Positions 37,140 through 43,973 of a stretch of DNA of 64,000 nucleotides are shown piece by piece (position 1 is the stretch's first letter; every line of letters starts with the position of its first letter). The translations under genes were made by a program, and so were the position numbers. The notes under the pieces are model-generated. The model saw nothing but the letters and a program-made list of their open reading frames with translations, had not been told where the DNA came from and did not search any database. This DNA comes from an uncultured Bacilli bacterium (lineage in GTDB: Bacteria; Bacillota_I; Bacilli_A; RF39; UBA660), in NCBI GenBank assembly GCA_947625625.1, contig CANQPC010000002.1, positions 2,893-66,892 of the forward strand. Reading direction: 5' to 3'.

Positions 37140-38018
37140 TCAATTATTTTCGACATAATTTTTACCATCAATGTCAACAGTCATATCTTCGTTAATACCC
37201 GGTAAATTTAAATCCGAAAATATTATATCTTCTTTTTCTTCTTCATCAGCACTATTATCATCACTGTTGTTATCACTACTAGATTCATTATCTTCTTCCG
37301 TAACTATATCACTATCTTTTATATGTATTAAGGCATTATTATCAGAAAATAATTTATCTCTTTCTACTTTTCTTGGGTCATAACTTGATACAATCCAAAA
37401 TTCATATAATAATTTTAGTATACCATCAGTCATTACCATATTTTCGATAGCTCTTAATTTACTTTCTTCTATTTTAATACTATTTTCAATTATATATATT
37501 TCATCTAAGATACTTTCTTGTTTTTGAATTAATACATCTTGACTAATAATAGTATTATATGTTTTAGGAAATCTATTCTTATCGATTCTTTCTTTTAATC
37601 TTTCTCTTTTAATTACTAATTCGGGGTAATTACTCTCTTTTTCTATTAATAAATATAATATATCTCTAATATCTTCTTCTTCATTCTTAATATCTTCATA
37701 TAAAATACTTTTATATTTATTATCAGTATCTTCATTAAATTTATTTAATAAAGTATCTTCTAGTAATATATTATCGACAGCATATTCTTCTTTTTGGACT
37801 AATAGTTCTTCGAGAGCTAATTTATCTTTATTTATTGAGTTTAAAACAGATAGATACCTACTCTTGGCATTAAGATAACGAAGAACATTATTATATCTTT
37901 CACTATAATAATTAAGGTCTTCATCATTACTATTGTTTTCTCTTAAATATCTAAGTATCTTCTCTAATCTTTCTCTTTCTTCTTCGATAGTAGCGGTAAC
38001 ATAATCATACTTATCCAT
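37140..38018 (-). CDS. Acidic coiled-coil protein, last gene of the F1-like ATPase cluster (orphan)
   Basis: The likely start is MDKYDYVTATIEEERERLEKI, directly after an AGGAGG inside the end of the gamma-like gene; the track ORF starts at a TTG at 38069. It is helical and heptad-like throughout, with a poly-acidic tail (EEDNESSSDNNSDDNSADEEEKED). No family recognised. Confidence 0.55.
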   Translation of the reverse strand: MDKYDYVTATIEEERERLEKILRYLRENNSNDEDLNYYSERYNNVLRYLNAKSRYLSVLNSINKDKLALEELLVQKEEYAVDNILLEDTLLNKFNEDTDNKYKSILYEDIKNEEEDIRDILYLLIEKESNYPELVIKRERLKERIDKNRFPKTYNTIISQDVLIQKQESILDEIYIIENSIKIEESKLRAIENMVMTDGILKLLYEFWIVSSYDPRKVERDKLFSDNNALIHIKDSDIVTEEDNESSSDNNSDDNSADEEEKEDIIFSDLNLPGINEDMTVDIDGKNYVENN

Positions 38019-38805
38019 TTTCTTCCTCCTGATATGCCATCTTTTTAAAATTATCAACTGTCTTAGCAACCAGTTTATTTTTCTTTTCTTTTCTCATCAT
38101 ATTTAATTCTTCTTCTTCAATTTCTTTTATTTTATCTAAAGCTTCGGTCGTAATTTGATTTCGAAGAACATTTTCTGCTGCTCGCGAAAAACATTCACAC
38201 ATTCGAAGCTGATACAAAATATAGAAAGAAAGTAAACTATGTAGCATACTAGTAATATCGGTCTCAATTACAAAATCATTTTTTTCGTCATATTCTCCAT
38301 CAAATTCTACTGGAAATAATTCTAATTTTCTAAATTCAAAAGAAGTACTTGAATTATAATGATTATAATATAAATTAATCGAACTATACGTAGAATTTCT
38401 TATTGCATCATCAATAGCTTTTTCTATCTTGGAGAATTCTTTATAAAAGTTATCTTTATCAATCTTAAGAATTACTTTATCATCAGTATATACAACTTTC
38501 TTTCCGATAATTATCTTATAATCATCTTTATCTTTCTTAATTTCTCTCGTTACCTGAGCATTAAAGTTTCCACAGAAACCGTAATCATTGGCAATATATA
38601 TATTAAGTCTAGCCATATTAGGGTCTGGTAAAATAACTTTTTTATCTAATAATAAATTTTTATTATAAATGATTGTCTTGATAATCTTTGTTATTTCTTC
38701 ACCGACATTTCGATAGTTTTCAGCTTCTCTTTTGGAAGCATCAACTCTAAGTAGAGAGTGGAAATTCATTACTTCAACAACACTTTTAATTCTCATTATT
38801 ACCAC
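38011..38805 (-). CDS. F1 ATPase gamma-subunit-like protein
   Basis: 264 aa with an N-terminal helix (IKSVVEVMNFHSLLRVDASKREAE), the central motif NDYGFCGNFN (compare DRGLCGGFN in canonical gamma), and a C-terminal long helix (ECFSRAAENVLRNQITTEALDKI, compare E..ARM.AM..AT.NA). Confidence 0.65.
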   Translation of the reverse strand: MVIMRIKSVVEVMNFHSLLRVDASKREAENYRNVGEEITKIIKTIIYNKNLLLDKKVILPDPNMARLNIYIANDYGFCGNFNAQVTREIKKDKDDYKIIIGKKVVYTDDKVILKIDKDNFYKEFSKIEKAIDDAIRNSTYSSINLYYNHYNSSTSFEFRKLELFPVEFDGEYDEKNDFVIETDITSMLHSLLSFYILYQLRMCECFSRAAENVLRNQITTEALDKIKEIEEEELNMMRKEKKNKLVAKTVDNFKKMAYQEEENG

Positions 38806-39301
38806 CCTTTCTTATATATTTATTTGCCGTGACAGCACTCTTAATATTCTTGAGAAGATTATAAGTTAAATACAAAAAGACAAATATCATAACAAATACT
38901 AAAAGAAGTAACATCCATACCGACATATATTCATTAGTTATATAATCATGTATTAAATAGATAATTTTTATACCTCCGAGAGATATTAAAGCTAAAAATA
39001 AATTAACGAGAAACCATTTATTTTTAATTAAAATATCGGAAAGTAATGTCAGTAATAAGACCATTCCTATTATATATATATCAATATCAACAAAGAAAGC
39101 TATTAAATAAATCATAAATATATAATTGATAATTGAAGAAGATATACTTACAATCTCACTATTTGTCATACCTTGCATCAATCCATATAATCTTACTTTT
39201 GACTTTTCGGGATTAAATTTTTTTATCAATAATTTTAAAATAATATATATTATTATTATTACAATTAAGGCTGAAATAGTAAAATAAAATACATCATTCA
39301 T
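38786..39301 (-). CDS. Polytopic (about 5 TM) membrane protein of the F1-like ATPase cluster (orphan)
   Basis: 171 aa and almost entirely hydrophobic, with acidic residues inside predicted helices (FFVDIDIYII, LLSDILI). It has neither the length nor the conserved Arg-containing helix of an a-subunit. Confidence 0.55.
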   Translation of the reverse strand: MNDVFYFTISALIVIIIIYIILKLLIKKFNPEKSKVRLYGLMQGMTNSEIVSISSSIINYIFMIYLIAFFVDIDIYIIGMVLLLTLLSDILIKNKWFLVNLFLALISLGGIKIIYLIHDYITNEYMSVWMLLLLVFVMIFVFLYLTYNLLKNIKSAVTANKYIRKGGNNEN

Positions 39302-39303
39302 AA

Positions 39304-39558
39304 CTATCCCTCTTTTATCATCAAATTAAATACGTTATCACTATTCATATAAAAAGCTTTAACTTTAGGAAAGGAAAGATTTACTGTATCGTTTTTGATA
39401 TCGATAGAGCCATCTATTTCTCCTATTATGGGAAGATAATCTTTCATAATAAGTAAATTATAGTCTTTACTGATAATTCTAATTATCTTAATATTTTCGT
39501 ATACGCGAAGGCCATTTTCCATATCGAAAATTTTTACTTTTATACCGTCATTATTCAT
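39304..39558 (-). CDS. F1 ATPase epsilon-subunit-like protein (beta-sandwich domain only)
   Basis: 84 aa. [50 protein letters not shown] fits the epsilon N-terminal domain pattern (G..GIL..H.P.I..L..G). The C-terminal helical hairpin is absent. Overlaps the beta-like gene by 8 nt. Confidence 0.55.
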
Positions 39559-42212: not shown

Positions 42213-42213
42213 A

Positions 42214-42981
42214 TCACACATTCCCTTCATTAAGGCTAAAATCATATACCCTATTTCGATATAAAATCTTTATTCCCTTATATATATTATCTGATACAAC
42301 CGTCTTAATTTTACTATCTATATAATCGTAATTAATATTCTTACTAGGAACTAAAATCGTAATAGTAGGGTCATTAAGCTCGATAAGTCTATTTAAGTAA
42401 TCAATAAAGTCTTCCATATTAAAATTATTACTAGATATAAAAATCTCATATACCTTATATTCTTCTTCTGTAAAAAACTTTTTAAAGTATTCTTCTCTTT
42501 CTTCTGGTAATAATACTTCTATCTTATATACCTCTTCAGGTGTCAATTTATTTCTTAAATTAACACAGAAATCATATCTATTACTATCTTTAATACTCGA
42601 TAAAAAATCTTTAATCAAGTCTTCGTAATTAATAATAAATTTTTCTTCAATTTTTTTATTTATGGCAAAAACATTTTTATCTACATAATCAGTTTCAGTA
42701 AGTAAATCTATTATTGTACTGTCAAAATCATAACTAGGTTTAGTATCGACATCTAAATTTTCTTTTAATCCATTTTCCCTTTTCTTTAATTCACTATCGA
42801 GTTCAGAAAGTTTTTTCTCTTTCTCGTCGATTAAAGAATCATATTCTTTAAGTTTATCAACAAAATATGATTTAGATTTTTCATTAATTGTTTTAACTGT
42901 ATTTTTAAGTACTAAACTTAGTACTATTACTAGTAGAGCAATAACAATAAATGAAATTATAAATATTGGCATCTTATCCAA
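42214..42981 (-). CDS. b-subunit-like stalk protein (N-terminal TM helix, coiled coil, C-terminal globular domain)
   Basis: [25 protein letters not shown], then a charged helical region ([21 protein letters not shown]), then about 150 aa of mixed sequence. The assignment rests on architecture and position between the c-like and alpha-like genes, not on motif identity. Confidence 0.45.
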
Positions 42982-43219
42982 TTAATGGATTAAAGAATAA
43001 TAATAAGAAACAGAAAGCAAATAAAAATACTAAGAATATTGCAAATATAATTAATATTGTCATAATAGAATGGACGACGTCATTCTTCGTTTCAGGATTT
43101 CTTCCGACAGCTTCCGCTACTCTTCCTCCTAAAAGTCCAATTCCAAGACCTAATCCTAAAAAGGCAAGTCCAACCATAACTCCAATAGCAACCGCTGTTG
43201 CTGATAAAATACTTTCCAT
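42974..43219 (-). CDS. F-type c-subunit-like proteolipid lacking the helix-2 carboxylate
   Basis: The likely start is [43 protein letters not shown] after AGGAGG; the track ORF extends to 43264. It has a Gly-rich helix 1 and an R-N-P-E loop (compare ARQPE). Helix 2 ([29 protein letters not shown]) contains no Asp or Glu. Confidence 0.65.
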
Positions 43220-43235
43220 AATTTTTTTCCTCCTT

Positions 43236-43973
43236 CTATATTTTTCCAAGTTCTTTATAAACATTTATTATCATATCGTTATTAACATAATAACAAACTT
43301 TATTTATCTCCATCAGATTAAAACTTCCATATACTTTATCATCTTCGATATACATATTCATAATCTGTGGCAACTTTTCTCTAATTCTAATAATATATTT
43401 TTCTTTTAATTTATTAAATTCTTCTCCGGTCATTTCTTCTTCAGTTATAGCATCAGTTACTTTTTCTCTTATATCGTCTACTTTAATATAATCATCAAAT
43501 ATACTTTCCGCTATCTCCTTATAACTGACATCTATTTTTTTTAATAGTTCTTCATTACTAATTACTTTCTTTTCAAATAAATCGATATTCAAAGAAACTA
43601 CATCTTCATAATCGACAGGTTCTTCATGTATCAAATATTTAATTTTAACCGACAAAATATTATCGTATATTCCTTTAGCAATATCGACATCCATAATCTC
43701 TTTATCGGAATAGTTTTTTTGTCTTTCAAGAAAATCATTATTAATATCATCACTAATATTTTCTATGTAAACCATATCACCCTTAACTTTAACATAATAA
43801 TCAGCATTAAAATGCATTATATTATCATAACTGGGTAGAGAACCATATTTATGATAATAAGCATAAATCCAATAGAAAAACATTGAAATAACAATACTAA
43901 TTACCATTGCTAAAACTAGTAAAAATCTTCGGTTGTCATTCTTATAAATATTAACCTTTTTCTTCTTTTTCAT
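43236..43973 (-). CDS. N-terminally anchored protein, first gene of the F1-like ATPase cluster (orphan)
   Basis: [16 protein letters not shown] followed by one TM helix, then a 200-aa acidic domain. No family recognised. Confidence 0.55.

Follow-up and report, generated by a model that had tools for sequence, protein, structure and literature searches.

The 64-kb stretch of DNA examined here (hereafter the window; positions 2,893 to 66,892 of contig CANQPC010000002.1, assembly GCA_947625625.1) comes from an uncultured Bacilli bacterium. Its minus strand carries a cluster of genes for an F1-like ATPase at 37140-43973, in surrounding DNA of 28% guanine plus cytosine (GC). The nine co-directional minus-strand open reading frames (ORFs) listed in the original prediction are all present in the window. 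In order of transcription, they encode a membrane-anchored protein (g1), a c-like proteolipid, a b-like stalk protein, an alpha-like and a beta-like subunit, an epsilon-like protein, a small membrane protein (m), a gamma-like subunit, and an acidic protein (g9). The ORFs of c, alpha, beta, and gamma match Pfam families, while the other five have no match. Relatives with a beta subunit 85-89% identical share the identical gene string, and the cluster is therefore a conserved operon and not a chance run of ORFs.

Several of the ORFs are shortened when their starts are judged by ribosome-binding-site context and by the gene calls in relatives. The c-like gene then begins at the ATG at 43219 (81 aa, in an ORF that reaches 43264), gamma at the ATG at 38796, and the last gene at the ATG at 38018 (~292 aa). 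With these starts the genes remain tightly packed, with junctions from 2-nt gaps up to ~18-nt overlaps in place of the overlaps of 8-59 nt first proposed. A single sigma-A-type promoter had also been claimed. The site itself exists on the minus strand at 44025-43997, where TTGACT-17-TATACT with an extended-10 TG forms a candidate sigma-70-like promoter. It falls in the 113-nt gap that precedes the first gene, directly past a terminator-like hairpin (44067-44046). This placement is suggestive, but the match is no evidence in itself, as such matches in this AT-rich DNA show no excess over shuffled sequences (72 observed versus 63 ± 8.5).

The alpha-like protein (40887-42245, minus strand; ~441-452 aa, with an ambiguous start at 42212-42245) and the beta-like protein (39551-40909, minus strand; ~449 aa) are the non-catalytic and catalytic subunits of an F1-type head. 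Pfam ATP-synt_ab is found in both 452-aa ORFs, each at ~1e-66 (3.5e-67 for alpha and 6e-66 for beta). The GDKKTGKT motif and PGRDAYP arginine finger of alpha are conserved across the family described below, as are the Walker A, GERSREG, and Walker B motifs, the DELSEED-like loop, and the catalytic Glu of beta. Across 74 alpha and 81 beta sequences these catalytic motifs stay intact, and the identification of the two subunits, called solid from the outset, stands. The accompanying claim that alpha, beta, and epsilon are all short applies to alpha, which lacks ~60 C-terminal residues, and to epsilon, which lacks its C-terminal domain, whereas beta is only ~15-20 aa shorter than canonical. Some relatives depart in the other direction. 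In loci L038, L042, L048, and L082, long C-terminal extensions bring alpha to 642-1,090 aa, and the beta of representative P0121 ends in a highly acidic 250-aa tail.

Neither subunit reaches the cut-off of any curated model. Against canonical atpD (TIGR01039), beta scores 451.3 bits, short of the cut-off of 462.85, and alpha scores 362 against a cut-off of 484 for canonical atpA (TIGR00962) and 405 against 554 for PRK13343, its best NCBIfam match. The N-ATPase models (TIGR03305, TIGR03324) are missed more widely (beta 403 of 752, alpha 342 of 750), and a further N-ATPase model, TIGR03322, gives 15.8 against a cut-off of 131. The mycoplasma Type 3 models (MSC_0618, MSC_0619) are likewise missed, with 415.8 of 570 for beta and 301 of 520 for alpha, as are those for mycoplasma Type 2 (MMOB1660, MMOB1670), with 364 of 600 for alpha and 369 of 850 for beta. 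As controls, a canonical representative (P0157) scores 567 and a true Type 3 representative (P0159) scores 580. The closest solved structures are of Bacillus-type F1, at 375 bits for beta and 293 bits for alpha (PS3 alpha), while the Mycoplasma mobile G1-ATPase scores lower (294 bits for beta, chain 9io5_A, and 243 bits for alpha).

The window operon is one member of a large family. A survey of GTDB with one genome per species, based on the beta motifs GKTVLIKE and FGQMG[DE], found at least 523 family-matching betas in species-representative genomes; the cluster is no oddity of this one organism. The 80 best of these at least 523 matches were fetched as loci L005-L084, and synteny was analyzed by iterative hidden Markov model searches in 84 loci (L001-L084). 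The window has all seven core genes and both beta motifs of the family. Host labels include uncultured gut Bacilli, Clostridium sp. CAG:302, Mycoplasma sp. CAG:956, Tenericutes/Mollicutes, and Ca. Coprovivens, and many further hosts are labelled Lachnospiraceae or Clostridia. One carrier is in culture: Bifidobacterium colobi LC6 (L079; NZ_JAFEJU010000010.1, 159-13198) has a full ten-gene operon of 60% GC, like its host, and its presence there suggests transfer across phyla. In RefSeq, four genes of this operon are named F0F1 ATP synthase subunits (e.g., WP_214377042.1) and the accessory genes are hypothetical. The loci span 26-60% GC and agree in each case with their flanks; the system has therefore been long resident in each host.

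The family is also distinct by phylogeny. Among 1.84 billion 50%-identity representatives, there are ~4 full-length relatives of the window beta (58-62% identity, 572-606 bits), followed by a gap down to at most 44% identity and 370 bits. In a distance-based neighbor-joining tree of 99 beta sequences, 98 of 100 bootstraps recover the family as one clade. Its members are at least 55% identical to each other (55-90%) and at most 45% identical to any other sequence in the tree. The sister group varies among replicates; it is a small clade including Type-3-like betas in 39 of 100 bootstraps and Type 2 in none. This separate clade and the missed cut-offs bear out the view that the cluster is not a canonical housekeeping atp operon. 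Three further beta-like representatives (P0146, P0183, and P0141) also fall under every NCBIfam cut-off, and other unclassified F1-like lineages may exist. A full-text literature search, which was not exhaustive, found no published description of the family. Neither the window nor the DNA up to 10 kb from the cluster in the 84 loci encodes another ATPase.

A core of seven genes (c, b-like, alpha, beta, epsilon-like, m, and gamma) is present in nearly all 84 loci. The commoner order, c-b-alpha-gamma-beta-epsilon-m, is found in 47 of 81 scorable loci, while in 34 loci, including the window, gamma has relocated behind m (alpha-beta-epsilon-m-gamma). The odd order c-b-alpha-beta-epsilon-X-gamma noted in the original prediction is thus real in the window, but it is a lineage-specific rearrangement of a canonical-like order. 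Nor is the unit one of nine genes. The 245-aa g1 and the last gene, first taken as 309 aa, occur in only 13 and 23 loci, respectively, the latter all of the rearranged type, and both are lineage-specific accessory genes outside the core.

The remaining core genes complete a recognizable F1Fo complement, with uncertainty about the a-subunit. The gamma-like central shaft (38011-38796, minus strand; ~261 aa) matches Pfam ATP-synt at 4e-23 in its 264-aa ORF and scores 52 bits against the TIGR01146 cut-off of 194. The epsilon-like protein (39304-39558, minus strand; 84 aa) consists of the beta-sandwich only, and the C-terminal helical domain that it lacks is the part of bacterial epsilon that inhibits hydrolysis. 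Its assignment comes from weak profile matches. The family profile has two PDB matches in all, to epsilon and to mitochondrial delta (E 1-2), Pfam ATP-synt_DE_N is matched by two of 30 members (best 0.0035), and the orthologue in L073 matches the NCBIfam epsilon model at 4.7e-4.

The b-like protein (42214-42972, minus strand; 252 aa) was modelled with AlphaFold2 at a mean predicted local distance difference test (pLDDT) score of 77. The model has a transmembrane segment with a long helix (residues 2-69), followed by a disordered linker, a helical bundle, and a beta domain. In Foldseek searches, its top PDB matches are nearly all delta/OSCP chains, the best being E. coli 6oqr_W (E 0.0096, prob 0.94), followed by chloroplast, A. 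baumannii, PS3 (6n2y_I), and mitochondrial OSCP chains. The mycobacterial b-delta chain 7njs_d stands at rank 24 (E 1.3, prob 0.13). Pfam OSCP is matched weakly by three of 29 members, and the gene is kept in 76 loci. Delta had been declared missing, but with moderate confidence the protein, then counted at 255 aa, is read from its model as a fusion of b and delta, which would supply both parts of the peripheral stalk.

An a-subunit had been declared missing as well, and here the outcome is divided. The candidate is m (38786-39301, minus strand; 171 aa), the "5-TM orphan" of the original prediction, a membrane protein of ~5-6 helices whose position is kept in 81 loci. It is the one polytopic protein of the cluster and occupies the site at which a stator subunit would be expected. 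Its AlphaFold2 model (mean pLDDT 81, predicted TM-score 0.70) has six helices, of which the last two are long, and Fo subunit a is over-represented at the top of its Foldseek matches (9jc2, 6n2d_a with TMq 0.43, 8dbw_a, 7jg5_a). From these fold matches, m may be a degenerate Fo a-subunit, a weak assignment to which sequence adds no signal. Searches by single sequence and by profile gave no PDB match, which rejects m as a sequence-recognizable a-subunit. A motif resembling the LRLFGN of a-subunits, VRLYGL, is not kept across the family, which has no invariant column and no conserved Arg, including the one essential to a-subunits.

The membrane ring also departs from ion-coupled enzymes. The c-like proteolipid (42974-43219, minus strand; 81 aa) matches Pfam ATP-synt_C at 1e-7 in its 96-aa ORF and PDB c-subunits down to 7e-14, and is alignable end to end with F-type c subunits as a helical hairpin with GxGxGxG and an RNPE loop. 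In 65 distinct family sequences, however, the column aligned to E61 of spinach, the ion-binding Glu, is occupied by A, S, T, or V, and neither transmembrane core contains Asp or Glu in 63 of the 65. The protein is otherwise among the best-conserved products of the operon. Strong conservation without the carboxylate places it under selection for another role, and because the ring has no ion-binding residue, the enzyme probably performs mechanical work and not ATP synthesis.

These features can be set against a more conventional explanation, namely a fast-evolving housekeeping F1Fo of a reduced-genome gut bacterium that couples H+ or Na+ through unconventional residues. All F1Fo subunit types are assignable (a possibly), beta falls just short of the atpD cut-off, the nearest solved structures are of Bacillus-type F1, and public records call the genes F0F1 ATP synthase. 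Nevertheless, the carboxylate is missing from nearly all c-like proteins, the a-like protein lacks a conserved Arg, and genes for a giant and two further N-anchored proteins are conserved along with the operon. The identities within and outside the family also indicate a separate, long-lived paralogous lineage. Lachnospiraceae and Bifidobacterium, in which the family occurs, are groups known to possess ordinary atp operons. A housekeeping enzyme is accordingly considered quite unlikely. The original prediction had allowed that nesting of alpha and beta within Type 1, recovery of the a and delta subunits, and the lack of any other rotary ATPase would together point to a divergent housekeeping synthase. 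For the subunits this holds by half, with delta recovered as a fusion and a uncertain. The complex does not thereby become a housekeeping enzyme, as its ion-coupling residues have been lost.

The same losses could be read as decay of an atp operon to a non-functional remnant. Such a remnant would fit the missing ion-coupling residues, the shortened alpha and epsilon, and a close relative with many broken ORFs. In that locus (L039; CP091726.1, a metagenome-assembled genome labelled "complete chromosome", with an 88% identical beta), every cluster gene and neighboring gene is broken into short ORFs. Breaks that hit every gene of the locus fit assembly errors, and the fragmentation looks like the result of assembly indels and not of decay. 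Elsewhere the ORFs are intact, in the window and in ~80 loci from genomes of 26-60% GC, all catalytic motifs are kept, and the c-like protein is highly conserved. A decaying remnant is therefore scarcely credible.

What distinguishes the operon further is its conserved co-location with genes for membrane-anchored, probably extracytoplasmic proteins. In loci of the alpha-gamma-beta type, the core is preceded by BIG (~1,700 aa) and P5 (~500 aa) and followed by P2 (~240 aa). P5 is present in 40, P2 in 39, and BIG in at least 33 of these 47 loci, whereas the three occur in only 6-10 of the 34 rearranged loci and are thus no universal feature of the family. Every P5 and P2 sequence examined has an N-terminal transmembrane anchor. 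An anchor for BIG was seen in L037 alone, as most BIG ORFs end at the edge of the locus. A domain is common to P5 and P2 (hhalign probability 90%). Pfam and NCBIfam contain no match to any of the three, and BIG and P2 also have no PDB match by sequence. The UniRef name 'LptC' for the P2 of B. colobi is unsupported by these searches.

The sub-lineage of the window carries g1 in place of BIG, P5, and P2. This 245-aa protein (43236-43973, minus strand) has one N-terminal transmembrane helix followed by a domain of ~200 aa that is probably extracytoplasmic, and matches no Pfam or NCBIfam family. It was considered and rejected as a delta subunit or P2 homologue, as hhalign gives 13% against P2 and 35% against P5, from the transmembrane helix only. 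Its presence in 13 loci only means that it is not a core subunit. The gene at the other end of the cluster, g9 (37140-38018, minus strand), encodes an acidic and probably cytoplasmic protein with no Pfam or NCBIfam match. It is very fast evolving, with ~600 aa in L012-L017 (e.g., L012 12925-14826), ~290 aa in the window, and ~60-aa fragments elsewhere.

Directly downstream of g9 lie four SipW-type or pilin-like paralogues of 248, 242, 220, and 212 aa (33981-37069, minus strand), which score 23 bits against a cut-off of 19 with the SipW-type signal model (TIGR04088). Apart from this model, searches of Pfam, NCBIfam, and the PDB found no family for them. Their N-terminal segment, IGVATLVVAIIGATFA(Y/F)F, does not vary between species, whereas the remainder has diverged to 31-58% identity. 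Pairwise identity is 0.42 in the transmembrane segment and 0.25 elsewhere. SipW-type genes adjoin the cluster in 26 of the 34 rearranged loci and in 1 of the 47 others, as one to five genes at varying positions. Judged by gene neighborhood, the paralogues are candidate associated envelope proteins and the strongest local lead for the variant in the window.

By analogy with type IV pilus ATPases, which turn a platform protein, the enzyme might instead be an assembly or export motor for these pilin-like proteins, with rotation of the ring extracting subunits or threading them into a surface fiber. From g9 to the four paralogues the minus strand shows no terminator-like site, and the family adjoins most loci that have the gene order of the window. 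The invariant hydrophobic segment and divergent remainder are in line with such a role, and the segment fits the SipW-type signal model. However, that signal match also suggests ordinary Sec export with cleavage, and a family found beside a single locus of the commoner order is not a universal partner. No pilin match was obtained by structure or by sequence, and to our knowledge there is no precedent for an F-type motor in fiber assembly. A dedicated assembly motor is thus conceivable but unlikely.

Two other proteins of the window deserve mention. Upstream of the cluster, u1 (44087-45265, minus strand; 392 aa) combines a signal peptide with a GN-rich collagen-like linker and a C-terminal pair of transmembrane helices. 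It is set apart from the cluster by the terminator-like hairpin described above, and its family is found in 8 loci, with a relative inside the cluster in L038; its association with the cluster is uncertain. In architecture only, and from outside the operon, u1 falls into one class with the large membrane protein encoded in mycoplasma Type 2/3 clusters. The second protein, of 537 aa, is encoded at 1759-3372 (minus strand) and has no relation to the cluster. It carries a thioester domain and SpaA-type prealbumin-like domains and is likely a pilin or adhesin of the sortase type.

Taken together, the subunit set is of the F1Fo type and complete, with the a-subunit assignment uncertain, and the catalytic head is predicted to be intact. 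From gene content and residue conservation, the balance tips slightly towards the cluster encoding an F1Fo-derived, ATP-driven rotary ATPase that is uncoupled from ion transport and acts on envelope proteins. Such an enzyme would move neither H+ nor Na+ by the known F-type mechanism and would run in the hydrolysis direction only. ATP hydrolysis would rotate gamma, epsilon, and the c-ring against a stator of b-delta, alpha3beta3, and m, and the torque or cyclic deformation would be passed mechanically to the co-encoded, membrane-anchored envelope proteins. The recipients would be BIG, P5, and P2 in most members and g1 and the SipW-type paralogues in the lineage of the window. Movement, adhesion cycling, fiber assembly, or export are candidate outputs.

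Several observations weigh against this rotary, mechanical interpretation. The stator role of m has little to draw on, as its fold matches are weak (E 0.3-4, TM-scores at most 0.43), Pfam ATP-synt_A matches none of 26 members, and hhalign gives a probability of 0.1% against E. coli a (with an approximate sequence for the latter). In L048, the residue preceding the canonical carboxylate position of the c-like protein (5532-5777, plus strand) is an Asp, either a reversion or a lineage-specific oddity, and an unconventional ion site may exist as far as sequence can tell. BIG, P5, and P2 are absent from the 64-kb window, where the one weak match is a tRNA synthetase, and the envelope partner in this organism is uncertain. 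More generally, the link between motor and envelope genes is drawn from synteny alone.

A wider proposal is more tentative and somewhat less probable than its converse. It holds that the family would constitute an unrecognized class of F1Fo-derived mechanical motors that is found across gut Bacillota and was transferred to Bifidobacterium. Such motors would retain the rotary architecture in full, c-ring included, with ion coupling lost, and would deliver torque across the membrane to giant or fiber-forming envelope proteins, with the same candidate outputs as above. If true, repurposed F1-like ATPases would be broadly distributed in abundant human and animal gut bacteria and not confined to mycoplasmas. 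The retained c-ring and stalk would offer a view of an ion-driven rotary enzyme turning purely mechanical. The annotation as F0F1 ATP synthase would mislead metabolic reconstructions of uncultured gut Bacilli. The cultured carrier B. colobi LC6 opens the question to experiment.

Among known systems, the canonical F1Fo ATP synthase (Type 1; PS3, 6n2y) has the same kinds of subunits, c, b, delta, alpha, beta, gamma, epsilon, and possibly a, and most family members keep its order c-b-alpha-gamma-beta-epsilon. The fusion of b and delta has a precedent in mycobacterial F1Fo (PDB 7njs). Unlike Type 1, the family has no c carboxylate and no conserved Arg in the a-like protein, its alpha and beta fall under the equivalog cut-offs, and the alpha C-terminus and epsilon are shortened. 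It also has a single stalk gene, places the a-like gene after epsilon, and bears large N-anchored proteins of no known family in the same operon. The N-ATPase (atpDCQRBEFAG) offers the case of a second, horizontally mobile F-type operon beside the housekeeping enzyme. Its c subunits retain the full ion-binding site, and its gene order and atpQ/atpR-like small membrane genes are absent here.

Repurposed F1-like ATPases have been described as specific to mycoplasmas (PMC3369863; PMC11864180; PMC12994834). Their Type 2/3 clusters have no c or b subunit and encode a 12-transmembrane-helix protein along with one small cytoplasmic and one large protein, the latter bearing a signal peptide and two transmembrane helices (PMC12994834). 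Like the present family, the Type 2 G1-ATPase, the twin motor of M. mobile gliding (9io5), pairs a rotary F1-like enzyme with very large surface proteins, and it is presumed to deliver mechanical force outside the cell (PMC11864180). Its beta bears an N-terminal dimerization extension of ~300 aa, in contrast to the ~449-aa beta of the window, and its cluster lists no homologue of the c subunit that is present here. The Type 3 F1-like X0 ATPase is needed for antibody cleavage by the MIB-MIP system (PMC3369863; PMC12994834). As in the present family, its F1-derived head (MSC_0618/0619) is encoded beside membrane and surface proteins, and it is additional to, and distinct from, the housekeeping enzyme. 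Unlike Type 3, the family has c and b-delta, no 12-transmembrane-helix protein, and a different gene order, and it misses the Type 3 cut-offs. Among the neighbors scanned with Pfam, which cover part of the window, no MIB- or MIP-like genes were recognized. The present family lives in walled gut Bacillota and in a Bifidobacterium.

The comparison with mycoplasma Type 2/3 clusters made in the original prediction therefore holds as an analogy and fails for gene content. A closer relationship, in which the family belongs to or was directly transferred from the gliding-associated Type 2 or the MIB-MIP-associated Type 3 clusters, would account for relatives in lineages labelled Mycoplasma sp. CAG:956, Mollicutes, and Tenericutes and for the common concept of an F1-like head with envelope proteins. 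The sister clade including Type-3-like betas also points that way, with weak phylogenetic affinity. Both subunits nevertheless score far under the Type 2/3 cut-offs and better against Bacillus F1 than against G1, the gene content differs, and Type 2 is never the sister group. Membership is refuted by these scores, genes, and bootstraps, and direct transfer is highly improbable. The family parallels the mycoplasma F1-like ATPases without belonging to them, and the proposed motor class could be their counterpart in walled bacteria or an evolutionary intermediate on the way to Type 2/3.

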